Assembly: GCA_965228875.1 (NCBI GenBank)
Contig: OZ245843.1
Coordinates: 4,384,616-4,448,615, forward strand
Length of the DNA stretch: 64,000 bases
Direction of reading: 5' to 3'
DNA from: Thalassobaculaceae bacterium
GTDB lineage: Bacteria; Pseudomonadota; Alphaproteobacteria; Thalassobaculales; Thalassobaculaceae
Shown here: piece after piece, positions 39,679 through 63,854 of the stretch
How the letters are laid out: every line of letters begins with the position of its first letter
Numbering within the stretch: the first letter of the stretch is position 1
The notes under the pieces: generated by a model
Databases searched by the model: none
Told to the model about the DNA's origin: nothing
Seen by the model: only the letters and a program-made list of their open reading frames with translations
Translations under genes and position numbers: made by a program

Positions 39679-40377
39679 ATGCTCGCCGCTGAAGATCTCA
39701 GGGCCGCCACCCTCTTCTCACGTCTCTCGGATCCCGAGGTCGACGCCCTGATCCCGATCCTCCGGGTCCAAGACCTGCCCAAGGGGACGTCGCTGTTCCG
39801 CGAGGGGGAGCCGATGGACCGGCTCTATCTCGTCATCAGCGGCTGGGTCACGCTGTTCCGCGATACCAGCGCCGGCCAGCGCGTGGTCATCCGGGTCTTC
39901 GGTCCCGGCGAAACCCTGGCTGAGGCGGCGTTGTTCCTCGACAGTATGTTTCCGGTCAGCGGTGAGGTGGCGGAGAATGCCCGCCTGGCCTCCCTGGATC
40001 GTCGAGCGTTCGAGCGGCTGCTCACGACCTCACCGCGGGTTGCCACCGGCATGATCGCTTCGCTGGCCATGCACCTGCGTGCCCTGACGATCGAGATCGA
40101 ACAACTCAAGACCCGCACCGCCACGGAGCGCGTCGCAGCCTTTCTGCTTACATGCTGCCCCGACCGGGGGCAGGCGGACTGCAGTTTCGAGTTGCCCTAC
40201 GACAAGAGCCTGATCGCCCAGCGCCTGGGCATGCAACCGGAGAGCCTTTCCCGGAATCTGGCCAGACTTCGTTCACACGGGATCTCCGTGGACCGCAATC
40301 GGGTGATTGTCGGCTCTCCGGGGGCTTTGGAACAAGCTCTGCGATCCGGCGACCTCGGGCGGTCGTTGGCGGGCTAG
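39679..40377 (+). CDS. Crp/Fnr family regulator (DNR/NnrR-like, no N-terminal FNR Cys cluster)
   Basis: cNMP-binding-like domain; HTH with PESLSR recognition helix. Confidence 0.93.
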   Translation: MLAAEDLRAATLFSRLSDPEVDALIPILRVQDLPKGTSLFREGEPMDRLYLVISGWVTLFRDTSAGQRVVIRVFGPGETLAEAALFLDSMFPVSGEVAENARLASLDRRAFERLLTTSPRVATGMIASLAMHLRALTIEIEQLKTRTATERVAAFLLTCCPDRGQADCSFELPYDKSLIAQRLGMQPESLSRNLARLRSHGISVDRNRVIVGSPGALEQALRSGDLGRSLAG

Positions 40378-40587: not shown

Positions 40588-41043
40588 GTGGCGGTACGGT
40601 CTGTTTGGAGGACGATCGCTTGGTGGAGGACGGCGGCCGTTGCGGTCGCGCTGGCGACTGTTGCCGCCTTCTGGCCCTTCGACGCGCGGGCGGAGCAGAG
40701 GCTGGTCGTCGAACTGAACAAGCTCGAGAGTTTCGACGGCGGGTGCCGGACCTTCTTCCTCCTGCGCAACGCCGGGGGCGAGGCTTTCCAGTCGCTCGAC
40801 ATGTCGCTCGCGGTGCTGGACGGCGACGGCCGCATCGATCGCCTGCTGACCGTCGATGCGGCGCCCGTACCGGCGGACAGGACGAGCCTGAAGCTGTTCG
40901 AGATTCCTGACGTCGCCTGCGACGGCGTCGGCGAACTGCTCCTGTACGAGATCGGCGCGTGCGCGACCGGATCCGACGACGGCGGCGACTGTTTCGACAG
41001 GGTCGAGTTGCGGTCGCGGGCGTCGATCCCGTTCGTGAAATAG
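40588..41043 (+). CDS. Exported Cys-containing hypothetical protein upstream of exbB
   Basis: Signal peptide ending ARA; VELNKLE...GCR; four Cys residues. Confidence 0.75.
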   Translation: MAVRSVWRTIAWWRTAAVAVALATVAAFWPFDARAEQRLVVELNKLESFDGGCRTFFLLRNAGGEAFQSLDMSLAVLDGDGRIDRLLTVDAAPVPADRTSLKLFEIPDVACDGVGELLLYEIGACATGSDDGGDCFDRVELRSRASIPFVK

Positions 41044-41060
41044 CGCGCGACGGTCCTCCG

Positions 41061-41672
41061 ATGAGCATGTCTGCGATGATGGCTGCCGGAGGACCGATCG
41101 TTCTCCTTCTTCTGGTGCTCTCGGCGGTTTCGCTGGCGTTGATCGTCGCCAAGGCGGTGCAGATCGTCGGCGTCGCGCGTGGCCGGTCGACCCGGCTGGC
41201 GGCGGCTCGGGCCTGGGCCGAGAGCGGCGGCTCGGCGGCTGAGTTCGATGCCGGAGCCTTCGCCGGTCCGGTCGGACGCGTGTTCGAGGCCGCGGTTTCC
41301 GATCCGGCGGCGCCCGCGTCCACCCGCCACGCCCGTGCCGAGCGGGTCGCGCGCGGTGAACTGGCCGGGCTGCGCTCGACCCTCCGCCTGCTGGAGGTGA
41401 TCGCTGTGGTCAGCCCGCTGCTTGGCCTCCTCGGCACGGTCACCGGGCTGATCGAGGCGTTTCAGGCGTTGGAGCAGGTCGGCGGCGGAGCCAACGCCTC
41501 GGTCCTCTCCGGCGGTATCTGGCAGGCGCTGCTGACGACGGCGATGGGGCTGATCGTCGCCATCCCCGCGGCGGCGGCGGGCAATCTTCTGGACGCAAGG
41601 GTCGAGGCCGCCGCCGTCGAGATGGAAAACCTGGCGAGCGTGGTGTTCGGCGAAACGCTGGAAGCGCCTTAG
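41061..41672 (+). CDS. exbB: MotA/TolQ/ExbB proton channel protein
   Basis: SPLLGLLGTVTGLIEAF...GGIWQALLTTAMGLIVAIPA. Confidence 0.9.
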   Translation: MSMSAMMAAGGPIVLLLLVLSAVSLALIVAKAVQIVGVARGRSTRLAAARAWAESGGSAAEFDAGAFAGPVGRVFEAAVSDPAAPASTRHARAERVARGELAGLRSTLRLLEVIAVVSPLLGLLGTVTGLIEAFQALEQVGGGANASVLSGGIWQALLTTAMGLIVAIPAAAAGNLLDARVEAAAVEMENLASVVFGETLEAP

Positions 41673-41686
41673 GGGCGGGCGGACAG

Positions 41687-42121
41687 ATGCGGCTGACGCG
41701 ACGGCAGAGACCGAAAGCCCTGATCTCGCTGACGCCCCTGGTCGACGTCGTGCTGATCCTGCTGGTCTTCTTCATGGTGACCTCAAGCTACCTTGATCTC
41801 GACGCCTTTCCGCTGGTCGACCGGACCGACCGGCCAACCGCCGACGGCGCGGTGACGGGAGATGCCGGCGAAACCGAGGCAGGCGCACGGTCCTCCATGA
41901 TGATCCTGCGCCTGGGGGCGGACGAGATGGCGCGGGGGCCGGGATTCGCGGTACCGCTGGCGCGGATGGAAGAGGTTCGCCCGATCCTGGCGGAGTATCC
42001 CCGGATCGCGATCCTGCCCTCGGGTGGCGCCTCGCTTCAGGGGCTCGTGACCGCCCTGGACGCGCTGACGGCCATGGGGATGGCCGATGTCCAGATCGTC
42101 CGGATCGGGGGCCAGCCGTGA
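41687..42121 (+). CDS. exbD: ExbD/TolR family protein
   Basis: LTPLVDVVLILLVFFMV with conserved TM Asp. Confidence 0.88.
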   Translation: MRLTRRQRPKALISLTPLVDVVLILLVFFMVTSSYLDLDAFPLVDRTDRPTADGAVTGDAGETEAGARSSMMILRLGADEMARGPGFAVPLARMEEVRPILAEYPRIAILPSGGASLQGLVTALDALTAMGMADVQIVRIGGQP

Positions 42122-42522
42122 ACCTGCGTCAGGACCGCGCCCGAACCCCGTATGACAGCATCGCACCGCTGATAAATCTGTCGTTCCTGCTGCTGGTCTA
42201 CTTTCTCCTGATCGGCACATTCGATGCGAGTGCGCCGTTCGACGTCTACCCGCCGGTGGCGCGGACCGGCCAGGATCTGCCGGCCGGCGGGTCGGTCCTG
42301 AGTCTCTCGGCCGACGGCGATGTGGCGTTCGACGGCGAGACCGTCGAACGGGAGACTCTTGAAGCGGTGGCGCGCGCGGCGATCTCGGCGTCGCCGGAAA
42401 AGCGCTTCCTGCGGGTCAACGCCGATGGCCGGCTGCGCGTCCAAGAGATCCTGCCGCTGATCGACCTGATGGAGACGGCCGGAGCGACGACGGTGGTCCT
42501 GGTCGTCACTCCGCCCGGCTGA
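42118..42522 (+). CDS. exbD: Second ExbD/TolR family protein
   Basis: IAPLINLSFLLLVYFLL, RVNAD; Asn at the TM Asp position. Confidence 0.85.
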   Translation: MNLRQDRARTPYDSIAPLINLSFLLLVYFLLIGTFDASAPFDVYPPVARTGQDLPAGGSVLSLSADGDVAFDGETVERETLEAVARAAISASPEKRFLRVNADGRLRVQEILPLIDLMETAGATTVVLVVTPPG

Positions 42523-42540: not shown

Positions 42541-44370
42541 GTGAGCGCGGTCGGCCTGGAGCGGCGTCCCGTGGCCTGGCCCGCGACCGTGGCGGCGGTG
42601 TTCGTCTCGCTCGCGGTCCATGGTCTGGCGGTCTACTGGCTCGACCGGCGGGATAGGGACGGTGAACCGCTGCGCCCCGGGCCGCTGACCAGCAGCATCG
42701 ACCTGTCCGGCGTCGACGTCCCCCAGTCCCGGGCGGAATCGACGCAACCGGAAACCACGCCGTCGCCCGAGGCAGAGGCAACGTCCGCCGCCTATGGCGC
42801 CGTCGGGATCCGCAGCAGCCGCGCCGAACCGGCCGTGCCGGAGCGGAAGGCGATCGCCGGCGCGCACGCCCCGTCTGAGCGGTTGTCCGGAGCACCGGGC
42901 GACGGCCGCACCGTGGAGGCCGGCGCGCCGCAGAGCCCTCGGCTGGCGACGCGCCCACCGGCGGCGGATCGGACCGCCGGTACGCCGCCTGAAGGAGAGA
43001 GACTGGCGGGCCGTGAAGCGCCGCTCCCCGCCAGTGCGGTCCCCGCCGCGACGCCTGCTGGCGAACCGGTGACCACGGCGGTTCCGGGAGACCTGTCGGA
43101 GCGGCGATCGGCGGCGTCGCCGGCGGCCGCTGTCACGGTGCCTGACATGCCAAGGCCCAAGCGGCTGGCCGAGGCGACGGCAGGTGCCGTCCGGGTCACC
43201 GGGGCGCAGCCGCCTTCCGCTGTCGCCGTCCAGAGCGCCGCTGCGGCGGATCGCGGCGAGGTGGTTCGTGCAGTCCGCGGCGAGGAGGTCGCGGCGACGT
43301 CGGCGGGCGTTGCGGACCGGGCCGTCGAGGTACCCCCGGCACCGCCGCCGACGGACCGTCGCGGTGATATCCGACCGGATGTGACCGAGGCAGCGAGCCG
43401 TGCGCCCGAAGTTGCTGAACAGGCGATGGCGACCGTCGCGGGTGAGGCGCCGAGGGTCGGGAACGCCCCCGCCCGTCTCGACCCGACGGTGGCGTCCGCC
43501 GGTCGCGCGACCGCCCTCGACCAAGTCCGGGCGGCGGCGGCACCGGTGCGGATGAGTTTCGCCGACTTGGCCGAAGCGCTCGCTGTGCTCGGCGACGAGG
43601 AATTCGCCCTGCTCACCGACGACGCTCGGGAGATCAGCCTCAGGCGGGCCGACGCGTTCAAGGGCGAGGTGGGCGACGTCATCGGACAGACGTTGGCATC
43701 CTTCCCTTGCAGTCGGTTGCAGGCCCGGTTCGACCCGGATAGCAACGTGATCGACGTGCGTGGCCATGTCGCCACGCAGGGTCTCGCCGAGCAGGTGTCG
43801 CCGCTGATGGCGCGGGTGACCGGGGGGTCGCTTGCGGTGACCTCCAGCGTCCAGATCCTGCCGTCCCCCCAATGCCGGGTGATGACGGCTTACGGCGCCA
43901 TGGGCATCCCCCAGTCGAGCGACCAGCTCGACGATCCACTGACCGTCGGTCAGGAAGCTCAGGCCGCAATTCTCGATTTCCGGGTCGGTGCGGTGATGGC
44001 CCTGGAGATAGAGACGCCCGACTTCCCGTCGTATATCCGCGTCGACCTGTACAGCAGCGACGGAAAGGTGCTGCATGTCGTGCCATGGCGCGGGTTCGGG
44101 CTGGAGCCCTTCGCCCCGGCGATGGCGCTGCGGGTCGGCGACGGCACCGGCGGCGGTCCGGTGCTGGAGGCGGCACCGCCGGTCGGCGTCGACGTCGCCG
44201 TCATGCTGGCGACCAGCGCGCCCCTGCCCGACGGCGAGCGACCGGTGTCCGAACCGGCGGACACCTACCAGAAATGGTTGGCGCGGAGCCTCGATGCGGC
44301 CGGCCGAAACGACCCGGAGTTCAGGGCCGAGTGGGTCTATGCACTGGTCGAGACGGTGGCTGCGAACTAA
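42541..44370 (+). CDS. TonB/TolA-like anchored protein with Pro/Ala-rich linker and C-terminal DUF4384-like domain
   Basis: TM with SLAVH (SxxxH), long low-complexity linker, C-terminal ETPDFPSYIRVDLYSSDGKVLHVVP...APPVGVDVAVMLATSAPL. Confidence 0.7.
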   Translation: MSAVGLERRPVAWPATVAAVFVSLAVHGLAVYWLDRRDRDGEPLRPGPLTSSIDLSGVDVPQSRAESTQPETTPSPEAEATSAAYGAVGIRSSRAEPAVPERKAIAGAHAPSERLSGAPGDGRTVEAGAPQSPRLATRPPAADRTAGTPPEGERLAGREAPLPASAVPAATPAGEPVTTAVPGDLSERRSAASPAAAVTVPDMPRPKRLAEATAGAVRVTGAQPPSAVAVQSAAAADRGEVVRAVRGEEVAATSAGVADRAVEVPPAPPPTDRRGDIRPDVTEAASRAPEVAEQAMATVAGEAPRVGNAPARLDPTVASAGRATALDQVRAAAAPVRMSFADLAEALAVLGDEEFALLTDDAREISLRRADAFKGEVGDVIGQTLASFPCSRLQARFDPDSNVIDVRGHVATQGLAEQVSPLMARVTGGSLAVTSSVQILPSPQCRVMTAYGAMGIPQSSDQLDDPLTVGQEAQAAILDFRVGAVMALEIETPDFPSYIRVDLYSSDGKVLHVVPWRGFGLEPFAPAMALRVGDGTGGGPVLEAAPPVGVDVAVMLATSAPLPDGERPVSEPADTYQKWLARSLDAAGRNDPEFRAEWVYALVETVAAN

Positions 44371-44554
44371 GAGCGAAGCCCGGCCGAGTCGAATTGACTC
44401 CCGGCCCCGGAAACACCACCATCCGACCTATACGGGAGGAGGCGCTCCCGGTGATTCCGAATGACATCGCAGCAACGGGCGGCCGCTCGAAGCCGGTCGC
44501 GCATGTTTCGGGGCCGGGCGTCTCATGCCGGCCGATCGACGTGAGGAGGTGGGG

Positions 44555-45211
44555 ATGATCTGCAATCGCCGAGGATTTCGGGCAGGTGTTGTCGCGGCCG
44601 GAATCCTGTTCATGATCGGCGGCACCTTGCAGGCGGCCGACAAGAGCGTTCGGCAGTTCGGAGAGAGCGCGACCAAGTCTCAGATGCTCGACTATCTGCT
44701 GAACTCGCCGGCCCCAACAGCGGCCCCGGCGGCGGTCGATAGCGACCTGCTCAAAGGCCTGCCGGCCAGGGTCGATCCGAACAGCGTGGCGACGCGCGGC
44801 GGCATTCTCAAGCCGGAGCGCGCGACGCCGAGCGTGACGGCCCAGTCACCCTGTCCTGTGACGGACAAGGCGTTCGGTACAACCGTCAACTTCGCCGTCG
44901 GCTCCTACTATCTGGAGCCGTCGACCTTCTCGGTTCTGGGCGAGGTGGCCGACCTGATGACCGATGAGAAGCTGAAGGACTGCGCCTTCGTGGTCGAGGG
45001 ACACACCGATTCCACGGGCAATCCGGATAAGAACAAGGTCCTGTCAAAGCAGCGGGCGGAGACGGTCGTGAAGTATCTCGAGAGCCATGGCGTGGCGGAC
45101 TCGCGGATGGAACTCGAGGGCAAGGGGAGCACCGAGCCGGCGGACCCGGTCAATCCGGCGGCCGATATCAACCGGCGGGTCCAGTTCCGTTTCGTCGACC
45201 GTCAGGGCTGA
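44555..45211 (+). CDS. Exported OmpA-family peptidoglycan-binding protein
   Basis: Signal peptide; VEGHTDSTG...NKVLSKQRAETV...NRRVQF; RBS GAGGAGG. Confidence 0.92.
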   Translation: MICNRRGFRAGVVAAGILFMIGGTLQAADKSVRQFGESATKSQMLDYLLNSPAPTAAPAAVDSDLLKGLPARVDPNSVATRGGILKPERATPSVTAQSPCPVTDKAFGTTVNFAVGSYYLEPSTFSVLGEVADLMTDEKLKDCAFVVEGHTDSTGNPDKNKVLSKQRAETVVKYLESHGVADSRMELEGKGSTEPADPVNPAADINRRVQFRFVDRQG

Positions 45212-45255: not shown

Positions 45256-45846
45256 TCAGCCCGTCGGCCTGCGGTGTCGGGTGGTCAGCGCGCCGTCCGT
45301 GAGCGTGTAAACCGCGACCTGCTCCCCGGCATCCTCCTCGGCGACGAAGCCGGCCAGGGGGCCGAAGAACGGTGTCAGGGAATCCGGTGTACCGGTCTTC
45401 AGGAAAAGGTGCAGCGCCCTCGGATCGTAGTAGCGGAAGGCGAGGCTGCGCCCGTCCTCGGTCATCACGATGTTGAATTTCCGCAGGTGACGCCGCAGCG
45501 CCGTCAGCTCGAGCGGCGACAGGATGTAGATCCCCCAGGCCTGCCCCCAGCCGTCGCGCAGGAGCCAGTCGGCCAGCAGCGACCCCTCCTCGATTTCCAT
45601 CAGGTAGGGCGCGACTTCCGCAAGATCCTCGGCCAGTTCGCCCTGGTAGAGCGAACGGACCCCCGCGCCCGTTCCCTTCAGTTTGCGGTGGATCGCGGTG
45701 TCGCGGGCCGCATCCAATGCCGCGAACAGGCGCACGCCGCCGTTCCCCGATCGGGCGTCGCGCAGGATGTCGGCGAGCAACTGGCGTCGCGCCTCGATGA
45801 TGTTGCGGGAAGGGACGCCGGCATCCGGCGTGCCGATCATGCTCAT
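45256..45846 (-). CDS. DUF4123 T6SS effector chaperone/adaptor (Tap-1/TEC)
   Basis: LDAAR, SLY, APYL, WG, LRRHLR, FRYYDPR; overlaps the vgrG stop. Confidence 0.9.
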   Translation of the reverse strand: MSMIGTPDAGVPSRNIIEARRQLLADILRDARSGNGGVRLFAALDAARDTAIHRKLKGTGAGVRSLYQGELAEDLAEVAPYLMEIEEGSLLADWLLRDGWGQAWGIYILSPLELTALRRHLRKFNIVMTEDGRSLAFRYYDPRALHLFLKTGTPDSLTPFFGPLAGFVAEEDAGEQVAVYTLTDGALTTRHRRPTG

Positions 45847-47897: not shown

Positions 47898-48060
47898 GTG
47901 AGGTCCGCTTCTCCCTGAGCCGGGTCTCGGTCGCATCATATCCAGGGCCGGGGGCCTCGGCCATAGATCGAATGTCTCGGGGTGGTGTAGCGCAAGTTGC
48001 GCGTTTCCTCTACAAGTTCCCCGGATCGTTGGGGTGGCAGTTCTTATTCTGGAGAGCACG

Positions 48061-50571
48061 ATGACCCGGAACGGTAGATCCTCAACCGCCACCGGCCGGA
48101 CCGGCCCGTTGGGGCGTGGCCTGCTCGTCGGGGCCGCCTTCCTTGTCGCCCTGGGGGTCGGTGTCCGAGTGTCTCCAGAAGGCGCCGCGACCGTCGCGGT
48201 CAGCACGGCCGAGGCCCAGGGGGCGAGGACGATGCTGCGCAACAGCAGCCGGGTGGTCCGCGACGCCATCCGCAACCAGATCCGCCAGGCGCTCACCGTG
48301 CGCCTGCGGGTCCAGGCGCCGCCGCGGGCGGAGGTCCAGCGGGTCGAATGGTCGTCGGACGGCACGATGGCCGCGGCCTTGCTCGCCGACGGATCGGGCG
48401 ACGTCTGGTTTCTCGATCAGGGCGCCACCCTGCGGCTGCCGGTTCTCGGGGCTCCGCCTTTCCGCGACGTCGTGCTCTCGCCGGGCGGCGGCGGGTTGGT
48501 GGCCGTGATCGACCGCGACGACCGGGTCGCGATCGCCACGCTCGGCGCCCCGGCGCGGCGCGGTCCGACCGATTTTCCGGGCGGTCGTCCGGTGGCGCTG
48601 ACGCCGCGCGGCGACCGCGCGGGCGTGCTGGTGTCCACCGTCGGCGGTACGGTGGTCGAGATCGGCGTCGACGGCTCCGCCAGGCGGCTCTGGTCCGCCG
48701 ATGGCGGTACCATCGACGGGATCGACGCCGATTCCGATGGAGACCGCGTCGTCGTGCATGCCGATGGCCGGGTCGTCGAGCTGGCGATCGGACCGTCAGG
48801 ACCGGCGACGGTCGAGGAAACCTGGCGGCTGACCGGCGTGCGGGATGTTGTCTATGCGGCCAGTGGCCCGGTGGCGCTCCTGGACGATGGGACGGTCCAT
48901 CGGCTGTCATCGGACGGCACCCGGTCCGCCGCCGAAAGTCCTGTGTCGGGAGACCGGCTTCTGGCGTCCGACGACGGCGCCTTCGCCGTGCTGACCGATG
49001 ACGGCGACGGGGCGGTCTGGCCCGGAACGGGGAATGCCCGACCGGCCCGCTTCGCCATCGGTGCCGAGAATGTTGCCGAGGCGACGCTGACTCCGGGCGC
49101 CGCGCTGGTGATGGTGCGGCGGGAGAATGGCTGGGTCGACGGACATGACGTTGCCACGGCGGCCGGCGGCCGGGTGCTGCGCATGGTCGCCACCCGCTCC
49201 GGCTGGGCCGCCGTGGATAGCCGCGGGCGCTATGACGGATCCTTGGACGCCCTCACGGAGGTCGGTTGGGGCGACGACGGCACCTTCATCGAGTTGGAGC
49301 GGTTCGCGGAACTGTATTTCGAGCCAGGCCTGGTTCGCCGCTACCTGGCGCGTCGGCGCGATTTTCTGACCGCGCCGCCGGAACCGATTGTCGACGACAC
49401 CGAGATCGCGGCGCCGCCGGAGGTGTCGGTGTCCGTGGACCGGGCGCCGGCCACGGCCGGACAGGCCCTCGTCGCCTCCGGATCCGTCACGTCCCCCGAA
49501 CCGGTGGTCGAGGTGCGGGTGTTCCACAACGGCCGCGCCCTGCCGCCCGAGGCGGTCGTCACCGGTACCAGTGACGACGGCGGTGTTCAGACGGTCACCG
49601 TGACGACCGACACGCAGGCGAGCGAGGGGGAGAACACCCTCCAGGTCGTTGCCCAGACCGAGTCCGGCCTGGTCACGGCATCCGATGTGCAGACGGTCAC
49701 GGTGGCGCCGCCGCCGGCCCCGCCTCCGGCACCCCGCCTGGTGGTCAAGAGTTTCGGGATCAACGACTACGCCAGCCCTGAGCTGAAACTGAATTTCGCC
49801 GCCGCCGACGCGGAGGCCATCGCCGACCGGTTCTCCCGGTCCGAGGTGTTCGAACCCTCCTACCGGACCAAGGACGTCTATCTGGATTCCAATGCCGGAC
49901 GGTCCACGATCCTCGGTCAGATGCAGAGCCTGCAGTCGCTTGGCGCCGACGATATGGCCGTCATCTTTCTGTCCGGTCACGGGGTGGCGACCCCTGACCT
50001 GGGCGACTGGTACTTCCTGCCCTACGAGGCCCGCAGCCTGAGCGATCTGGACCACATCGCCGGGGTCGGGATCAGCGACGGCTTTCTCGTCTCGGCGATC
50101 ACCGATCTCAAGGTCGACCGGGTGCTGCTGATGATAGATAGCTGCCAGTCCGGCGTGGTCGCCGACGAGTTCTCGCGCTACCGACAGCGCCGCTCCCTCA
50201 AGCGGATCGCCGACCGCACCGGAATACAGATCCTCACGGCGACCCGGCCCGACCAGCTAGCACTGGAGGTGCGCGAACTCGGCCATGGCCTCTTCGCCTA
50301 TGTCGTGCTTGCCGCGCTCGATCGCGACTCGCGCGGACGCTACCGCGCCGATCTGGGGCCGATCGACGGACGTGTCTCGGTCGCCGAACTGAGGTCCTAC
50401 GTCGAGACGAACGTACCGGTGGTGGCCCAGACACTGATGGAGGCGATGGGTCGCAGCGGACAGGGAACGCAGGTCGCCTCGGCTGCATCCACCCGGACCC
50501 GCGGCGGCGCCGGGACGAGCGTGGTGATGCCGGTCTCGGCGGCCTATGGCCGGAACTTCACTGTCTACTGA
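48061..50571 (+). CDS. Exported beta-propeller + Ig-like + caspase-family (C14) protease
   Basis: Hydrophobic N-terminus, WD40-like repeats, GINDY...LNFAAADA, FLSGHG (His 49978) and IDSCQSG (Cys 50143), LGHGLFAY. Confidence 0.88.
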   Translation: MTRNGRSSTATGRTGPLGRGLLVGAAFLVALGVGVRVSPEGAATVAVSTAEAQGARTMLRNSSRVVRDAIRNQIRQALTVRLRVQAPPRAEVQRVEWSSDGTMAAALLADGSGDVWFLDQGATLRLPVLGAPPFRDVVLSPGGGGLVAVIDRDDRVAIATLGAPARRGPTDFPGGRPVALTPRGDRAGVLVSTVGGTVVEIGVDGSARRLWSADGGTIDGIDADSDGDRVVVHADGRVVELAIGPSGPATVEETWRLTGVRDVVYAASGPVALLDDGTVHRLSSDGTRSAAESPVSGDRLLASDDGAFAVLTDDGDGAVWPGTGNARPARFAIGAENVAEATLTPGAALVMVRRENGWVDGHDVATAAGGRVLRMVATRSGWAAVDSRGRYDGSLDALTEVGWGDDGTFIELERFAELYFEPGLVRRYLARRRDFLTAPPEPIVDDTEIAAPPEVSVSVDRAPATAGQALVASGSVTSPEPVVEVRVFHNGRALPPEAVVTGTSDDGGVQTVTVTTDTQASEGENTLQVVAQTESGLVTASDVQTVTVAPPPAPPPAPRLVVKSFGINDYASPELKLNFAAADAEAIADRFSRSEVFEPSYRTKDVYLDSNAGRSTILGQMQSLQSLGADDMAVIFLSGHGVATPDLGDWYFLPYEARSLSDLDHIAGVGISDGFLVSAITDLKVDRVLLMIDSCQSGVVADEFSRYRQRRSLKRIADRTGIQILTATRPDQLALEVRELGHGLFAYVVLAALDRDSRGRYRADLGPIDGRVSVAELRSYVETNVPVVAQTLMEAMGRSGQGTQVASAASTRTRGGAGTSVVMPVSAAYGRNFTVY

Positions 50572-51614: not shown

Positions 51615-53546
51615 GTGCGGTCCAGAGCCAGGCCTTATGACGTTCCGGACCTCAAGGTTCATCTGACCTATCAGTCCGAGGTCGATGGTCGAGAGGTCGA
51701 ACTGCCGTTCGTCGTCGGCGTGGTCGGCGCGTTCCGCGGGGAACGGGACGATGCCCGTGAACCGGTGTATGAGCGCGAGTTCGAGGACGTCTCCGAGCGC
51801 GGTGTGGATGTTCTGCTGGCGCGGTGGAAGCCGCAGGTCAGTGTCGCGGTGCCCGACCGGGCGGGCGGTGGCGCGCAGGCGGTAGCGCTGCGCTTCGCCG
51901 GCTTGAAGGACTTTCAACCCGAGGCTTTGATCCGCCAGGTGCCGGCGCTCGCCGATGACCATCGGACCCGCGACATTCTCGTCGATCTGAGGGATCGCCT
52001 GATGACCGCGGCCGGGCCGCGCCGTATGGCCTATGGCGCCGGAACGCTGGCGGACGATACCGTCTCGGAGGACGACGCCGCGCTTGTGGAGATCCTGGCG
52101 ACGGCGGTGGATGCAGCCCGCGCCGCGTCGCCGCGCACCCCGGAATACCGGGAGACCATCGACCGGGCGGTGGACGGAATCCTGGCCGGGATCGGCGACC
52201 TGTCGGTACGAACGGTCATGGAGGCGATCGACCTCGACGTCGCGGAGATCGACGCGGCGTTGTCGCGGCGGTGCGATGCGATCCTGCACGATCCCGGGTT
52301 CCAGCGGTTGGAGGCGCTCTGGAGAGGTGTGGACCTGCTGGTCCGCCGCGGCGATTCCGACCCGCTCGTCATCGTGAAGGTGCTCGACCTCACCCGCGAG
52401 GAACTGGAACAGGATCTGTCGACCCACATCGCGCCGGACGACTTCCAGCGCGCCGCCGTTCTCGATTCCACGCTCTTCCGGATCATCTATTCAGAGGAGT
52501 TCGGCCAGTTCGGCGGCCACCCGTTCGGCCTGATCCTGCTGGACGAGTACATCACGCCCGCCGCGACGGATGTCCGCTTGGCCGAGCGTCTGGCCACGAT
52601 CGGCGAGGCGGCCCATTGCCCGGTCATCGCCGCTGCCGCGCCGGAGATGTTCGGAATCCCGGCGTACTCCGACCGCGATTGGGGGCACGGCGATCTGCGG
52701 TCGCTCTTCGGCGAGGCCCGCTACGCCGAATGGCGGGCCCTGCGTCAGAACCCCGTGTCGCGATATCTGGGTCTGGTCCTCCCGCGGTTTCTGCTGCGCG
52801 ACCCCTATCGGTCGGCCGGACGCCAGACCATGCCCTTCGACTTCGAGGAAAAGGTGGCCGACGGGGACGGTCTGCTCTGGGGCAATGGCGCCTTCGCCTT
52901 CGCCCTGACGGTGGTTTCGGCTTTTGCGCGCTACCGGTGGTGCACGGCGATCACCGGTCTGGAGGGTGGCGGGGCGGTGAGCGGGCTCGTCGCGCCGGAC
53001 TACGGCACCGACGAGGGCGCCCACGTCTTCCGTCGCGCCACCGAGAGGGTGATCTCGACCCGTCACGAGCGCGATCTCGCGGTGGCCGGGTTCATACCGC
53101 TGGTGCAGCGGCCGGGTCAGGCCGAGCCGGTGTTCTGTTCGGCCTTCTCGGTCAACCTGCCGTCGGGGCGCCTGGGCATGGATCCGATGTCGGAGCGGCT
53201 TTCGGCGCGCCTGCCCTACATGTTCGCCGCATCGCGTATCGCTCACTACGTCAAGGCCAACATGCGGGAGCGGATCGGCGGTCAGGCGAGCATGAGCCGG
53301 CTTCAGTCCAACGTCAGCCGCTGGATCTCCCAGTATGTGGCCTATCAGGACGACGTGGACGACGAGGTCAAGGCGGAGCGTCCGCTACGCGATGCCCGCG
53401 TCACCGTCCTTCCCTCGGAAGACGAGCCGGGACGGTTTACTTTCCGTATGGAGGTCCAGCCGCATTTTCAACTCGAGGAAATGGGGATAAATTTGGTCGT
53501 CGGCCGGCTGGCGGAGAGCGTCGAGGACAACCAGGGCGGGCATTAG
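51615..53546 (+). CDS. tssB-tssC: Fused T6SS contractile sheath protein TssB-TssC (VipA-VipB)
   Basis: aa ~12-130 TssB motifs (VHLTY, ELPFVVGVVGAF, F.GLKDFQPE.LIRQVPAL); then TssC motifs (EIDAALS...ILHDPGFQRLEALWRG, YSEEFGQFGG.PFG, LPRFLLRDPY, LWGN, RLPYMF..SRIAHYVK, RPLRDA, PHFQLE) with no stop between. Confidence 0.9.
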   Translation: MRSRARPYDVPDLKVHLTYQSEVDGREVELPFVVGVVGAFRGERDDAREPVYEREFEDVSERGVDVLLARWKPQVSVAVPDRAGGGAQAVALRFAGLKDFQPEALIRQVPALADDHRTRDILVDLRDRLMTAAGPRRMAYGAGTLADDTVSEDDAALVEILATAVDAARAASPRTPEYRETIDRAVDGILAGIGDLSVRTVMEAIDLDVAEIDAALSRRCDAILHDPGFQRLEALWRGVDLLVRRGDSDPLVIVKVLDLTREELEQDLSTHIAPDDFQRAAVLDSTLFRIIYSEEFGQFGGHPFGLILLDEYITPAATDVRLAERLATIGEAAHCPVIAAAAPEMFGIPAYSDRDWGHGDLRSLFGEARYAEWRALRQNPVSRYLGLVLPRFLLRDPYRSAGRQTMPFDFEEKVADGDGLLWGNGAFAFALTVVSAFARYRWCTAITGLEGGGAVSGLVAPDYGTDEGAHVFRRATERVISTRHERDLAVAGFIPLVQRPGQAEPVFCSAFSVNLPSGRLGMDPMSERLSARLPYMFAASRIAHYVKANMRERIGGQASMSRLQSNVSRWISQYVAYQDDVDDEVKAERPLRDARVTVLPSEDEPGRFTFRMEVQPHFQLEEMGINLVVGRLAESVEDNQGGH

Positions 53547-59250: not shown

Positions 59251-59386
59251 GATCAAGGCGGTGTGCGCTAAGTAGCATTGACGATAGTTCGCTGGCGGAG
59301 TTCCCTAAGTGCGGGAAAATCTATCCGGCGGAGTTTGAGGCAGGGACTATTCGTGGCGCGTCGAACCGGGCGTGGGATGGGGGAGC

Positions 59387-60409
59387 ATGGCCGACAGTCA
59401 GACGGGCGCCGAGGCGCCGAAGGAAACGGACGGCGAGGCGGTACCCGCCGAGGGGCAGGAAGCCGCCGCGGCGTCACCACCTGCAGCGGCGTTCTCGGAG
59501 AATATCGCGGCGATCGACAGGACCACGGCGGCGGCGGTTGCGACGCTGCGTCGGGCGGAGCCGAAGCACAAGGGATCGGACCCTCTCTACAACATTCCCT
59601 GGTATCTGTTCCTCGGCCCCTCGTCGGAGTCCGTGGAACAGCTGCTGCGCGCGGTGCCGAACGGCGACATCCTTGCGCCGGGGCAGGCGGAGCCGGCGGG
59701 CGAGACGCTTCGCTGGTGGAACCTGCGACGGGCGATCGGTATCTCCTGGCCTTCAACGCTGCTCTGCTCCCATGACGACCGGGAACGCTGGCAGGTCGTG
59801 GAGCATGCGATGGAATCGCTGCTCAAGGCGCGCAAGCATCTGCCGGTGAACGGGATCGTGGTCGTGGTTCCGGTCGCCGACCTCGTCGACGGGTCGGGGC
59901 GGCTCGACAGACTGGCGCGGGTGATCCGCGATATCGTCAACGAGATGCGGACCACGCTTAAGTTCAGCTTTCCGACGACGGTGGTCGTCACCGGCCTGGA
60001 TCGGCTCACGGGACATGACGCGTTCTTCGGTGGCCTCGACCGGACCACGGAGCAGGCGCTCGGGATCCGGCTGGACGATGCCATGCGGCAGGCGGATGTC
60101 AGGGCGACGATGGCGACCACCTTCGCGCAGTGGCGCGACCGGCTGCACGAGATCCGCATGTCGCTGCTGCGGCAGCCGGCCGAGAAGGTCGACATGCGGG
60201 GGGTGTTCCGGTTCATCCCCGAGTTCGAGCGGCTGGAGGCGCCGCTGGCGGCACTGGTCGAGACCCTGTTCTCCGAGAGTCCGGGAGACAACCGGCGACC
60301 GCAGTGGCGGGCGCTGTATCTGACGGCGCCGGGCAGCAGGGAACCGCATCTCAAGGACCTGTTCGATCACTTTCTTCCTGTCGACGCCTCGCTCGCGACG
60401 CGGGCGTGA
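59387..60409 (+). CDS. Stand-alone TssM/IcmF N-terminal cytoplasmic domain (no TM or periplasmic part)
   Basis: LYNIPWYLFLG, LRWW, W...L.KAR...PVNGIVVVV, FPTTVVVTGLDRLTG..AFF, QALG, F..EF, WRALYLT, HLKDLF; stop where the TM would begin. Confidence 0.8.
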   Translation: MADSQTGAEAPKETDGEAVPAEGQEAAAASPPAAAFSENIAAIDRTTAAAVATLRRAEPKHKGSDPLYNIPWYLFLGPSSESVEQLLRAVPNGDILAPGQAEPAGETLRWWNLRRAIGISWPSTLLCSHDDRERWQVVEHAMESLLKARKHLPVNGIVVVVPVADLVDGSGRLDRLARVIRDIVNEMRTTLKFSFPTTVVVTGLDRLTGHDAFFGGLDRTTEQALGIRLDDAMRQADVRATMATTFAQWRDRLHEIRMSLLRQPAEKVDMRGVFRFIPEFERLEAPLAALVETLFSESPGDNRRPQWRALYLTAPGSREPHLKDLFDHFLPVDASLATRA

Positions 60410-60475: not shown

Positions 60476-61885
60476 ATGACCGAACGACGTAGCCTTCTGG
60501 ACGTGTTCACCCCGGTGATGCTGGACGTCCTCGATGTCGAGGATGGCCTCGCCCGGGGCGATGGCAGCGTGCCCTCGGCGGAGCAGAAGACGGAGGAATG
60601 GCTGGCGACGATCGACGAGGCGGTCGCCACGGCCGAACGCCTCGGCCACAGCAGCCAGAACGCAGAGATCGCCAAGCGTGCCGTGATCGCCTGGATCGAC
60701 GACATCATGGGGCTCCGGCGGGACTGGTACGGCCGGGTCACCAACCTTCAGTCCCGCGTGTACAACGGCGCCTCGGTGCTCGGCCGAAAGTTCTACGAGG
60801 ACCTGGAGGCCCTCAGCAAGGACAGTCAGAGAGACGTCTTCGACGTGTTCTTCGTCTGCCTCGCCCTCGGCTTCAAGGGAGAGAAGCTCCTGTACGCCGG
60901 ATCCGACGTGGACCGCGAGGCGGCCCGCCTCAAGCAGGATGTCAGTTTCCACCTGTCGACGGACCGCATCGATCTCGACAGGCTGCCCGGCCAGAAGATC
61001 TTCGCCCAGCCCTATCAGCAGGACGACCCGCCGCCGCCGCCGCCGGGCCCGCCTCTGCCGCGATCCTATGGCAAGATCCTTGCTGCGCTGGCGGCGGTTC
61101 TGTTGCTGGCGGCGATCGGCGCCGGGTACTGGCTGACCCGGAGCGAGACCGACTGGCGGGCGCATATCCAGGCGGCGGCCGAGGAGGCGGTTGGGCGCTA
61201 CGAATGCGCCAGCGTCTCGGTCCGGACGGCGCCGGACCTGTCGCTGTCCTACAAGGGTTTCGTCGGGTCGGAGGACGATCGCGGCGCGCTCGAGGCGGAC
61301 CTGCTGGGCATCGAGCGGGTGGAGCGGGTCACCGGCACGCTTGAGGTCATGCCTTGGCCGCTTTGCGCCGTGCTTGTGATCCTGGAGGATACGGTGCTCA
61401 ACGACGGTTCCCGGTCGGAGACTCCGACGGTTGCGGTCAACCATCGTGACGGGAGGTATCGTCACCGCGACCTCCTGGTCACTGACGTGACGGTGCCGGC
61501 GGCGGAGCCCGGTCACCTTCTGGTCAGCTATGTCGGGCAGGCGGACACCGTCACCCATCTGTTCCCGAACGAAGACGTCGTTTCCAGCCGGGCCGATCCG
61601 AAGATGCGATTGCGCCTCGGATACGCGGAAGGCGCGGCCTCCGATGCCGGCGGGTACGATGTGCAGACCAACCTCATGTATCCGCTGTCGGCGGACCCCG
61701 AAGGGCCCAGTCTGGTGTTCGCTGTCTGGAGCGCGGAACCGATCCTCGACGGCTTCGCGCCGGTGTCGCAGCAGCGGACCGACGAGTTCCTTGCGGCGCT
61801 CCGCGCGGCTGTGGATGCGTCCAATGCGTCGGACGACGCCGCCAGGCTCTATGCCCGCACGGTGACGATCACCGTGGCCCGGTAG
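60476..61885 (+). CDS. tssL: TssL/DotU fused to a periplasmic Cys-pair + DUF4384-like module
   Basis: AVIAWIDD, LQ..YN....G.KFYE.L, VFFVCLALGFKG; poly-Pro, TM, then a non-OmpA periplasmic region. Confidence 0.85.
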   Translation: MTERRSLLDVFTPVMLDVLDVEDGLARGDGSVPSAEQKTEEWLATIDEAVATAERLGHSSQNAEIAKRAVIAWIDDIMGLRRDWYGRVTNLQSRVYNGASVLGRKFYEDLEALSKDSQRDVFDVFFVCLALGFKGEKLLYAGSDVDREAARLKQDVSFHLSTDRIDLDRLPGQKIFAQPYQQDDPPPPPPGPPLPRSYGKILAALAAVLLLAAIGAGYWLTRSETDWRAHIQAAAEEAVGRYECASVSVRTAPDLSLSYKGFVGSEDDRGALEADLLGIERVERVTGTLEVMPWPLCAVLVILEDTVLNDGSRSETPTVAVNHRDGRYRHRDLLVTDVTVPAAEPGHLLVSYVGQADTVTHLFPNEDVVSSRADPKMRLRLGYAEGAASDAGGYDVQTNLMYPLSADPEGPSLVFAVWSAEPILDGFAPVSQQRTDEFLAALRAAVDASNASDDAARLYARTVTITVAR

Positions 61886-61928: not shown

Positions 61929-63128
61929 ATGGATGCTGGCGTGTTTTCGGCCGACGCGGTGCTTCATGCCGCGCTGTATGGCACGTTCATCGTCATGATC
62001 GTTGCGATCGCCGCCAACGACTGCGCCGGCGCGGTCGCGCTGGTCTGCGTCGACGGCACGGTCGACATGCGCGCAGCGCAGGTCCTGATCGCGGTGTTCC
62101 TGGTTGTGGGCGCCGTGTTCGTCGCGCCACCCGTCCTCGATCGCCTGATTCTGCCGCTGATCGCCCTGGAGGACTTCCGCGCCGCACCCTTTGCCGGACC
62201 GACGGTCCTGTTCAGCGCCGTCGTGCCGCTGGCGCTGGCGACGGTGTTCGGCGTCCCGGTCTCCGCATCGGCTCTGGTGGTCCTGGCCGTCCTCGGGGTC
62301 ATCGTCGAGCGCGGAGGAGGCGTCGATGCCGCCGCGGCTGGCCGGCTGGCGTTCGCACTGCTGCTGCTGCCCGCCATAGCCTGCGGGGTCGGTCGAGGGT
62401 TGGCGTGGGCGTTTCGGGACCGAGCCGTTTCGGGCTCCCGGCCGCGCGATGCGCTGACCTGGGCTCTCCCGGGACTGGCGGCGTTGCTCGCCGCAGCGAC
62501 CGTCGTCGTCGTCGCGCTGCTGACGGATCTGCACGGGCCCGTCGCGCAGGTCTCGGCGATCGTCGCGGGCATCGCTGTCATCGCGGCCTTCGCGGTCGGC
62601 GGCGTGTATCTGCTGCGCATTCGCCGGTCGCCGTTCTGGGTGTCCAACGACCGTCAAGGGTTCGAGGCGGCGCATGGATCGCTGTCGCTGGCGTGCGGCG
62701 CCCTCGGCGGCCTGTTGCTCAGCGGTGTCAATGTCGGCATGGCGATTGCGCTTTTGTCGGTCCTGCTGAACGGGGGAGGCGCCGGCGTGAGCTTCGCCAG
62801 CCCGCCGCTCTGGCTCGGCCTCGGGCTGGCGTTCCTGACCGTTCTGCTGGCCGGCCATCATCTGGCGGGACGACTGGAGCGTGCCGGACTGACGCCGGAG
62901 CCGTCGCAGGCCGCGATCGGGACCATAGGCGCGTTCGTCGGCGCCGCGCTGGCGGCCGTCGTGCACGCCCCACTGCCCCCCAGCCTGACACTGGCATCCG
63001 GACAGTGCGGAGCGGCGGGTGACCTCCGCACAACGGCGCGGTGGCTCGGCATCGGACTCCTGGTCGGCCTGCTGTCCTTCGCCCTTTCCTTTGCCGTGGA
63101 TCTGGCGCTCCGCCTTCTGGCGGAGTGA
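61929..63128 (+). CDS. Polytopic membrane protein, degenerate PiT/PHO4 phosphate-transporter-like
   Basis: AANDCAGAVA resembles GANDxANA; GVPVSASALVV resembles G(L)PVSTTH; about 10-12 TM helices. Confidence 0.55.
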   Translation: MDAGVFSADAVLHAALYGTFIVMIVAIAANDCAGAVALVCVDGTVDMRAAQVLIAVFLVVGAVFVAPPVLDRLILPLIALEDFRAAPFAGPTVLFSAVVPLALATVFGVPVSASALVVLAVLGVIVERGGGVDAAAAGRLAFALLLLPAIACGVGRGLAWAFRDRAVSGSRPRDALTWALPGLAALLAAATVVVVALLTDLHGPVAQVSAIVAGIAVIAAFAVGGVYLLRIRRSPFWVSNDRQGFEAAHGSLSLACGALGGLLLSGVNVGMAIALLSVLLNGGGAGVSFASPPLWLGLGLAFLTVLLAGHHLAGRLERAGLTPEPSQAAIGTIGAFVGAALAAVVHAPLPPSLTLASGQCGAAGDLRTTARWLGIGLLVGLLSFALSFAVDLALRLLAE

Positions 63129-63149: not shown

Positions 63150-63854
63150 ATGCTGTCCGCCGCGCTCAGTCAAGTCCATCCGACCGTCGGTTTCGCCGTC
63201 CTGTTGTGTCTGGCCGCCGTGGCCGTGTGCGTGACCGCCATGCCGGTGCTCCGTGGGGCGGCGGCGGGCGTCGATCCCATGACGCTACGACGCGCGGCGC
63301 GCGCCGCGCGGGCGCCGCACCGGCCGCTGCTGTCTCTGTTCAACACGGGCCGGCGCCGGATCGTCGCCCTGGCCGGCATCGGGACGCTTGTTGCCGTGTT
63401 CGGGTTCGGCAGCCTCGGTCTGGTGGCGTTCGACAGCAGGATACGGGGTCAGAATTCGGCGATCGCCGAGCGTCACCGCCTGGAGGGCGAGATCGAGGCG
63501 GCGCGGGCGCAGACGAAGGAGGCGGAACGTCGTGCCAGCGAGGCGCTGGCGGCAAGGGACGAGGCGCATCGCGAGGAGATGCTGGACCAGGAGGCGCGCT
63601 ACCAGAAGCGGATCGAGGAGCTCAAGGCGGAACACCAGGCGGAGGTGAACAGCCTGACCCTGAAGTTCCAGGAGGACCTGGCGCGCCAGGGGGAGACCGA
63701 CGAGTTGAAGAACTCGGTCAGCAGCATGCAGATGCAGCTTCTGGAGCAGACCAACAGGACGCTGACCATCGAACTCGACCGGGCGAAGGAGATCATCCTG
63801 GATCAGGCGGCCCGGATCCGGGCGCTCGAGGAGAAGCTGGCGGAAGGCAACTGA
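63150..63854 (+). CDS. Hypothetical membrane-anchored coiled-coil protein
   Basis: Two hydrophobic segments followed by an E/K/Q-rich heptad region. Confidence 0.7.
   Translation: MLSAALSQVHPTVGFAVLLCLAAVAVCVTAMPVLRGAAAGVDPMTLRRAARAARAPHRPLLSLFNTGRRRIVALAGIGTLVAVFGFGSLGLVAFDSRIRGQNSAIAERHRLEGEIEAARAQTKEAERRASEALAARDEAHREEMLDQEARYQKRIEELKAEHQAEVNSLTLKFQEDLARQGETDELKNSVSSMQMQLLEQTNRTLTIELDRAKEIILDQAARIRALEEKLAEGN

Follow-up and report, generated by a model that had tools for sequence, protein, structure and literature searches.

A DUF4384-like module with a BON-like subdomain at the C-termini of TssL and a TonB-like protein of one type VI secretion locus

Proton-driven motors serve several machines of the bacterial envelope, such as GldLM/PorLM of the type IX secretion system and AglRQS, which works with the TonB-like proteins GltG and GltJ in gliding; we know of no motor of the Exb/MotA type for the type VI secretion system (T6SS), whose accessory anchors are exemplified by TagL. 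Here we analyze a stretch of 64,000 nucleotides (hereafter, the window) from a Thalassobaculaceae bacterium (Alphaproteobacteria; assembly GCA_965228875.1, contig OZ245843.1, positions 4,384,616 to 4,448,615 of the forward strand), which contains both T6SS genes and a five-gene cassette with an Exb-type stator. Judging from sequence profiles, the TssL protein of this T6SS (60476–61885, plus strand) and the fifth cassette protein, a TonB-like candidate energy transducer of 609 amino acids (aa; 42541–44370, plus strand), end in one common module. The feature that the window has in common with GldLM/PorLM and AglRQS is a MotA/ExbB-type stator encoded beside, and possibly serving, an envelope machine.

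The 609-aa protein resembles TonB and TolA in the place of its gene after those of ExbB and two ExbD proteins, in an N-terminal transmembrane (TM) segment with the motif S-x3-H, and in a linker rich in alanine and proline, but it differs from them in its BON-like and DUF4384-like C-terminus and is longer than TonB frames of 385–417 aa. The window TssL resembles long-form or 'evolved' TssL (TIGR03350) in its DotU domain, its one TM segment, an extension of about 230 residues and its place in the T6SS operon after TssK, but the extension is BON-like and DUF4384-like, and an OmpA-family protein is encoded separately beside the TonB-like gene. The closest described families for the module are Pfam DUF4384 (PF14326) together with BON (PF04972) or BON_like (PF21923), and relatives of both modules pass the PF14326 cut-off; the PF14326 model, however, covers about 81 residues of a sandwich, whereas the unit conserved here has about 230 residues with a Cys pair and a closing helix and strand. 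In predicted models the first 60 or so residues are also like the inner-ring domains of type III secretion systems (T3SS; CdsD/YscD/PrgH and EscJ/PrgK) and like BON proteins (DolP, OsmY, BonA), but identity to these ring and BON domains is 13–25%, the modules are single-copy and continue into an immunoglobulin (Ig)-like domain, and the likeness is one of predicted fold only. DUF4384 itself is often fused to caspase domains.

The C-terminal module common to TssL and the TonB-like protein

An earlier note on this DNA had proposed that TssL and the TonB-like protein share a periplasmic module with a Cys pair. The open reading frames (ORFs) 60476..61885 and 42541..44370 and all motif strings quoted in support are present in the translations. 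TssL (469 aa) has a DotU domain (residues 7–217) and a single TM-like segment (approximately 201–219), after which 250 more residues follow; residues 232–469 (61169–61885, plus strand) form its predicted periplasmic module. The 609-aa protein comprises a TM helix (approximately 11–34), a linker (approximately 41–374) and the module at residues 375–609 (43663–44370, plus strand). The only cysteines of TssL are residues 128, 244 and 297, and the codons of C244 (61205–61207) and C297 (61364–61366) are spaced by 53 codons; C390 and C445, the only cysteines of the 609-aa protein, are encoded from 43708 and 43873 with a spacing of 55 codons; the codon positions and spacings are those given in the note. 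The pair turned out to be a hallmark of the family, being invariant in two alignments of 48 and 35 sequences, and probably forms a periplasmic disulfide. A His-x2-Pro motif in the sandwich (H361/P364 in TssL, H512/P515 in the 609-aa protein) is kept in at least 90% of the rows of both alignments and is invariant in the 609-aa family.

BLASTP of TssL against the 609-aa protein produced one collinear alignment of 225 columns (residues 237–453 against 383–591) with 20% identity and E = 0.009, which taken alone is suggestive only. The similarity was settled by three independent profile tests. The TssL C-terminus matched a profile of seven sequences of the 609-aa family with a probability of 95.5% (E = 1.3e-8). 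Comparison by hhalign of a 48-row profile of the TssL side with the 7-row profile of the 609-aa family, the rows of which came from separate searches, yielded 99.9% and E = 1.7e-34 over 229 columns, aligning TssL residues 232–469 with residues 375–607. When the TssL-side profile was run over the 4.96-Mb genome, it retrieved TssL (6.1e-70) and the 609-aa protein (1.4e-27, profile positions 34–271 of 273). At the level of sequence profiles, the two proteins thus end in one common module of about 230 residues that is homologous over its full length, in agreement with the earlier proposal.

The only other match in the genome, at 837 kb (3.8e-6), is partial and covers the DUF4384 core only, so that the genome holds two full modules, both inside one 21-kb locus and 17 kb apart. 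The protein with the partial match (genome 835.5–838.9 kb; loci L001/L006) carries the DUF4384 sandwich without the BON-like part, fused to trypsin and caspase domains, and a second caspase protein adjoins it.

Assignment of the modules to DUF4384, also suggested at the outset, holds through their relatives and fails in a direct scan. The Pfam scan of module relatives, made for the best 82 of 150 listed, detected PF14326 at E<=1e-3 in 81 of the 82 relatives of the TssL module, many of which also match BON; PF14326 is likewise present in five of six non-self homologs of the 609-aa C-terminus (precomputed annotation, with three rescanned). The scores are 32–40 bits for P0004, P0006 and P0007, which are homologs of the 609-aa protein, 26.6–57 bits for its homologs in related loci, and 27.4 bits for P0009, an ortholog of TssL with 53% identity. 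Against the assignment stands the direct scan, which misses PF14326 in both window proteins over their whole length at E<=1; the isolated TssL C-terminus reaches 13.0 bits (E = 0.11), under the gathering score of 27 bits, and the isolated 609-aa C-terminus has no match at E<=10. In profile-profile comparison the modules fall within DUF4384, both profiles consisting largely of PF14326-positive proteins, and by this transitive sequence evidence both are DUF4384-like. For BON, Pfam has no match in either window protein, relatives match BON or BON_like (P0010 with E = 3.7e-12, P0006 with E = 1.8e-4), and homologs of the 609-aa C-terminus have a weak BON_like match across the Cys-to-Cys part.

AlphaFold2 models of the TssL module (predicted local distance difference test, pLDDT, 89.7; predicted template-modeling score, pTM, 0.87) and of the 609-aa module (pLDDT 90.1, pTM 0.85) are both confident and have the same order of elements: first a helix, two strands, a helix, a strand and another helix, then a sandwich with six to seven strands, and last a long helix and one more strand. 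Foldseek found no solved structure in PDB at E<=1e-3. In a wide VIA-align search, the best PDB match for both models was the periplasmic BON-like domain of CdsD (4qo6_A), superposed on residues 1–61 of the TssL module with Z 10.4 and a root-mean-square deviation (rmsd) of 1.2 Å over 59 residues, and on the 609-aa module with Z 9.6 and 1.8 Å over 63 residues. The BON proteins DolP and OsmY followed at Z 6.5–8.9, the T3SS ring proteins YscD, EscJ, PrgK and PrgH at Z 6–7.7, and Ig-like domains (RbmA, macroglobulin/complement MG, PKD) matched the rest of the modules at Z 6–9, with residues 82–238 of the TssL module at Z 8–9. As Z values of 6–8 are common in VIA-align searches, only the match of the first subdomain stands out. 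The structural similarity of the two modules, which the note had led us to expect, is seen in the predicted models as the common order of elements and the common best matches. In the models the module is composed of an alpha-beta-beta-alpha-beta subdomain of the BON or ring-building type, an Ig-like DUF4384 sandwich, and a closing helix and strand.

An exhaustive search with TssL residues 232–469 retrieved 289 representative proteins at E<=1e-3, of which 49 reach E<=1e-10, and the match was nearly always C-terminal, in proteins of 180–930 aa; a word-indexed homolog search with the TssL C-terminus matched TssL itself only. Among the 82 scanned relatives there were 27 Ser/Thr kinases (Pkinase), seven DotU/TssL proteins, three papain-type peptidases (Peptidase_C1), two FHA proteins, one of them with T6SS_FHA_C, and one nucleotide cyclase, and the rest were short proteins with the module alone. 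The module is therefore a widespread mobile periplasmic domain. NCBI names for both protein families are 'DUF4384 domain-containing' or 'hypothetical'. One preprint gives DUF4384 as a C-terminal partner of one proteobacterial kinase family. Judged by titles and abstract openings, the literature found contained nothing on DUF4384 in T6SS or TonB settings and nothing on an Exb/TonB-like cassette as a part of T6SS; nor was anything found that joins the periplasmic domain of TssL with a BON domain.

The module in place of TonB_C and of OmpA

The Exb cassette lies on the plus strand and begins with p151, a small exported protein with four cysteines and no family (40588–41043), followed by an ExbB/TolQ-type stator (40959–41672; Pfam MotA_ExbB with E = 1.3e-27, NCBIfam tolQ and exbB below their cut-offs), two ExbD/TolR-type genes (41687–42121 and 42118–42522; Pfam ExbD with E = 1.8e-10 and 1.4e-16) and the gene for the 609-aa protein. 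The ExbB frame as listed overlaps p151, and translation probably begins at the ATG near 41061. The two ExbD genes are one of only two ExbD pairs genome-wide.

The linker of the 609-aa protein (residues 41–374, about 330 aa) contains 23% Ala, 12% Pro, 10% Arg and 8% Glu and thus qualifies as a Pro-rich spacer. No Pfam or NCBIfam family matches the protein, including TonB_C (PF03544) and the C-terminal domain of TolA, so that it is not a TonB by the defining C-terminal domain. Its TM helix carries S23-x3-H27; S-x3-H, the signature of TonB/TolA anchors, is present in nine of 11 family members and replaced with S-x3-N in two, and Asn is the one substitution of the TM His reported to be functional in Escherichia coli TonB. 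The two homologs with S-x3-N (loci L009 and L013) both have a TpsB/TpsA two-partner secretion pair directly 3' of the TonB-like gene. No gene for a TonB-dependent receptor was seen adjoining the 609-aa gene. Taken together, these features show the 609-aa protein to be a TonB-type arm with a swapped head, in which the module takes the place of TonB_C.

A search with a 4-row alignment of the 609-aa family found close relatives of its C-terminus in 15 loci of alphaproteobacterial genomes, with 33–44% identity. In all 11 loci with enough flanking sequence, p151, ExbB and two ExbD genes lie upstream in the same order and on the same strand, and the other four are at contig ends. The best conserved cassette protein is p151, with 50–65% identity across cassette loci; its N-terminus is signal-like, it has no Pfam or NCBIfam match, its Atlas clusters are unnamed, and 40 of the 401 genomes sampled from the class encode a member of its family. 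ExbB is directly 3' of p151 in nine of 18 p151 loci from other genomes, and one of these 18 (L023) has a module-bearing fifth gene. In four of four paralogous cassettes checked, the fifth gene encodes an ordinary TonB with TonB_C (E from 3e-17 to 5e-14; frames of 385–417 aa). A paralog of p151 with 35% identity at genome positions 1,022,980–1,023,375 has neither ExbB nor ExbD adjoining.

TssL matches DotU (PF09850) with 65.6 bits against a cut-off of 27 (E = 6.5e-18) and NCBIfam TIGR03349 with E = 1.9e-14, and its gene follows those of TssE, TssF, TssG, TssK and a TssM N-terminal piece. Extended TssL proteins had been said to end usually in a peptidoglycan-binding OmpA/MotB domain. No OmpA domain was detected in the whole window TssL at E<=1 or in its isolated C-terminus at E<=10, so it falls outside the long form as defined by TIGR03350, whereas the long TssLs of four other genomes (G006, G007, G009 and G103) all proved to be DotU+OmpA and had no match to the module hidden Markov model (HMM). 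Hence, as had been supposed, the module stands in the position of the OmpA peptidoglycan anchor of long-form TssL. The other two DotU genes of the window genome are short frames of 306 and 310 aa. The DotU+module architecture was found in seven of 82 representative clusters and, in addition, in genome G008; a metagenome scan with TssL and P0009 yielded no relative.

The age of the two copies was assessed by a FastTree phylogeny of 117 module sequences (the two window copies, P0003–P0090 and the locus ORFs; P0091–P0158, the self-identical P0001 and P0002 and one duplicate locus were omitted), a quick, midpoint-rooted tree with two long branches flagged. All 23 TonB-like modules fall in one clade with a Shimodaira-Hasegawa-like support of 99 and a stem of 1.02 changes per site. 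The window TssL module pairs with TssL of P0009 (support 100) amid modules of kinases and stand-alone proteins. The DotU-linked modules are scattered (seven changes for nine rows, with 36 of 500 shuffles equally low), and therefore the TssL fusion arose, or was exchanged, several times. Local duplication as the origin of both window modules was rejected by the tree, in which they lie in separate parts and are divided by the long stem. The description of the two as paralogous modules about 17 kb apart is thus upheld in the sense of ancient paralogs with 20% identity, as sequence comparison shows them to be, and not in the sense of close paralogs or of a local duplication.

The cassette, the T6SS genes and their surroundings

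The earlier note took the shared module as evidence that ties the Exb genes to the T6SS. In eight of 16 well-flanked loci, the cassette has T6SS genes no more than 10 kb away (the window, L014, L018, L019, L023, L056, L057 and L059); four of these (L018, L019, L023 and L057) are nearly identical to one another, L014 and L019 have the cassette divergent from tssA of the main T6SS operon, and L056 has a rearranged gene order in which the T6SS flanks the cassette on its opposite side. One T6SS locus of genome G008 encodes a TssL bearing the module together with three further module proteins, and also contains ClpV, a Crp gene, caspases, OmpA proteins and a TssM N-terminal piece with a fused cyclase domain; among the further module proteins is a lipoprotein, the module of which falls together with that of the G008 TssL. 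OmpA-family genes are recurrent neighbors of the cassette, and caspase-like genes are found near it in the window, L013, L014, L019, L023, L057, L058 and L059. Some caspases near the cassette or in the G008 T6SS locus carry Sel1 repeats or an FGE-sulfatase domain.

A number of observations weigh against a role of the cassette in type VI secretion. The other eight well-flanked loci (L008, L009, L010, L011, L012, L013, L016 and L022) have no T6SS gene within 10 kb: in L008, L010, L012 and L022, which are of the Inquilinaceae type, the cassette adjoins module-bearing kinases, two Ser/Thr kinases with the full module per locus lying 1–6 kb upstream on the opposite strand (HMM scores 228–243 bits); in L009 and L013 its neighbor is the two-partner secretion pair; and the genes beside it in L011 and L016 have no evident connection to it. 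Apart from the window, every locus with an adjacent T6SS falls into a single Rhodobacterales-type clade of the module tree, and because of this the independent linkages of cassette and T6SS may be only two. TssL lacks the module and has the OmpA form in the four cassette-bearing genomes checked (G006, G007, G009 and G103), in three of which a T6SS lies beside the cassette, the T6SS of the Rhodobacterales-type clade being canonical. In G008 the cassette and the locus of TssL with the module are on different contigs. Further DotU+module genes were absent from the 400 genomes of the class and 400 genomes of the phylum that were sampled, and we know of no ligand of DUF4384.

The shared module consequently does not tie the Exb genes to the T6SS in the four other cassette-bearing genomes checked, where TssL is without the module, and the cassette also occurs without T6SS genes within 10 kb. 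What can be retained is a partly supported link, made of the recurrent adjacency in a second lineage and the G008 T6SS locus with its four module proteins, and set against it are the eight of 16 loci without T6SS and the linkages that are perhaps only two. From locus to locus, the cassette and its own module stay constant, and the partner varies.

The T6SS locus occupies the last third of the window. Fused TssB-TssC is encoded by a 643-aa ORF (51615–53546, plus strand; VipA at residues 10–132, VipB at 208–627), and downstream of it are Hcp, TssE, TssF, TssG, TssK, the TssM N-terminal piece, TssL and a PHO4-like membrane protein (Pfam); TssB and TssC have genes of their own in the related G008 and Leisingera loci. 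The TssM piece (59372–60409, plus strand; 345 aa) is a soluble N-terminal, NTPase-region protein (Pfam IcmF-related_N, E = 1e-32) that matches TIGR03348 at positions 68–363 of 1168, below the cut-off, and has no TM-like segment. It is the sole TssM-like gene at this locus; full-length TssM is encoded elsewhere in the genome at 1.946 Mb, in a second, canonical T6SS with full TssM and ClpV (1.93–1.95 Mb), and a third set of sheath, TssM-like and DotU genes lies at 4.53–4.54 Mb. Among the ORFs scanned from 39.7 kb to about 18 kb beyond TssL and the window end, none belongs to the TssJ, TssA or ClpV families.

On the 3' side of TssL there are a polytopic membrane protein (61929–63128, plus strand; a weak PHO4 match, E = 2e-10) and a coiled-coil protein (63150–63854, plus strand), and beyond the latter three family-less ORFs of 116, 467 and 236 aa (L007:1511–3931) and then an autotransporter; the PHO4-like protein, the coiled-coil protein and the three family-less ORFs may be unrecognized parts of the window T6SS.

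Between the cassette and the T6SS genes, the gene directly 3' of the TonB-like gene encodes an OmpA-family peptidoglycan-binding protein (44525–45211, plus strand; Pfam OmpA, E = 6.9e-20), for which the NCBIfam models of YiaD, Pal and the OmpA part of long-form TssL score below their cut-offs. A DUF4123 adaptor gene (45256–45846, minus strand) follows vgrG, which is also on the minus strand; no same-strand ORF lies between the adaptor gene and the convergent OmpA-like gene, and no obvious cognate effector adjoins. Between vgrG and tssBC, a caspase-like protein (Peptidase_C14, E = 1.9e-10; 48034–50571, plus strand) starts with a signal-like or TM-like stretch, which would be an export signal or an anchor; as listed, the start of its ORF overlaps the over-long 5' end of the vgrG ORF. 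It was considered as a further carrier of the module and rejected, being absent from the genome-wide matches of the module profile; it is a candidate for a partner of DUF4384 modules in trans.

A Crp-type cyclic-nucleotide-binding regulator (39679–40377, plus strand; Pfam) is encoded ahead of the cassette. In the G008 T6SS locus, a Crp gene adjoins the TssM N-terminal piece that is fused to an adenylate/guanylate cyclase domain (L049:4956–7319). The presence of Crp genes in both loci hints at cyclic-nucleotide control of T6SS of this type.

Possible roles of the module

We lean, with moderate confidence, towards the explanation that the module is an envelope-docking or oligomerization unit and that the Exb stator acts on a common target as an accessory of the T6SS. 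According to their inferred topology, TssL and the 609-aa protein would be single-pass inner-membrane proteins with the module in the periplasm, where it would bring each carrier to a common target; this target might be the cell wall or outer-membrane layer, the caspase-like exported protein, or a further copy of the module itself. As TssM at this locus is reduced to a soluble N-terminal part and no TssJ was found in the scanned region, it would fall to the TssL module to make up the membrane complex on its periplasmic side. The proton-driven Exb stator would reach the same target by way of the TonB-like arm with its long Ala/Pro linker and would pull on it or remodel it, and this action would be accessory to the assembly or firing of the T6SS.

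The same facts could reflect coincidence, a promiscuous domain having been acquired independently by the two proteins, and the Exb cassette with p151 and its OmpA-like and caspase-like partners being a self-contained envelope system that works apart from the T6SS and whose place beside it is without mechanistic significance. The 20% identity of the modules and their places in separate parts of the tree, the scatter of the DotU-linked modules, the half of the well-flanked cassette loci that have no T6SS, and the OmpA form of TssL in the cassette-bearing genomes checked would all be expected from it. We nevertheless consider it somewhat unlikely, given that the sole two full modules of the genome are found in one 21-kb locus, that the adjacency of cassette and T6SS is kept across divergent Rhodobacterales-type loci, one of them with a different gene order, that a second kind of module-bearing membrane protein, the kinases, occurs near the Inquilinaceae-type cassettes with two copies each, and that the G008 T6SS locus holds four module proteins. 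The kinases and FHA proteins among the carriers suggest another reading, in which the module would sense an envelope signal such as damage, a wall fragment or proteolysis by the co-encoded caspase-like proteins; on TssL it would gate the place or time of T6SS assembly, and on the TonB-like protein it would relay an energized signal. The 27 kinases of this set are membrane Ser/Thr kinases, accompanied by the two FHA proteins and the cyclase; the preprint pairs DUF4384 with a proteobacterial kinase family; caspase-like genes stand beside the cassette in the window and the seven loci listed above; and the Crp-type regulator ahead of the cassette has its counterpart in the G008 locus, with the TssM piece fused to a cyclase. 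TssL and TonB, however, have no known signaling output, and no signal or cleavage site was identified; we rate sensing as such an unlikely explanation, and it overlaps with docking to a common target and does not exclude it.

A more direct coupling, close to the hetero-oligomerization that the earlier note had put forward next to a shared ligand as a possible tie, would have the TonB-like module bind the TssL module in a mixed oligomer or ring, with the Exb motor acting mechanically on the T6SS membrane complex. The predicted fold of the N-terminal subdomain is of the type from which T3SS inner rings are built, as seen in the CdsD matches (Z 10.4 and 9.6) and in those of the other ring proteins (Z 6–7.7), both genes lie in one locus with the only full copies in the genome, and module-bearing partners, kinases or TssL, recur near the cassette. 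Likeness to the fold of ring domains does not show oligomerization, however, the two copies are deeply diverged, and the canonical T6SS beside the cassette has a TssL without the module, which rules direct coupling out as a general mechanism; we give this reading very little credence. A complex prediction on both modules had a score of 0.00, which, obtained with no controls, carries no verdict and counts neither way. We attach little credence, too, to a broader picture of a T6SS whose trans-envelope part would be built otherwise than the TssJ-TssL-TssM complex, in which a soluble TssM piece, a TssL with a ring-type module, and a dedicated, proton-driven ExbB-ExbD motor with a TonB-like arm would be combined. 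The arm would engage the TssL module or a common partner (caspase-like or OmpA-like), and the machine would be opened, anchored or reset by it; this would be the first T6SS accessory powered by proton-motive force.

Two well-known protein types, TonB and long-form TssL, are each defined by the C-terminal end, which binds a receptor in the former and the cell wall in the latter, and here one uncharacterized domain replaces both ends. The kinds of components are already known; new is that a TonB-type arm and a long-form TssL bear the same swapped head. DUF4384 with its BON-like partner and Cys pair thereby gains a setting, being periplasmic, on single-pass inner-membrane carriers, and in repeated T6SS and kinase contexts, and a TonB-type cassette with a non-TonB head is defined that is kept beside T6SS genes in a second lineage. 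Should the motor be unrelated to the T6SS, a clean domain-swap annotation for two poorly named protein families would still follow. If the motor does serve the T6SS, proton-motive force would be an added energy source of type VI secretion, and it would become understandable how the envelope is spanned by the products of a locus that has neither a periplasmic TssM nor a TssJ.

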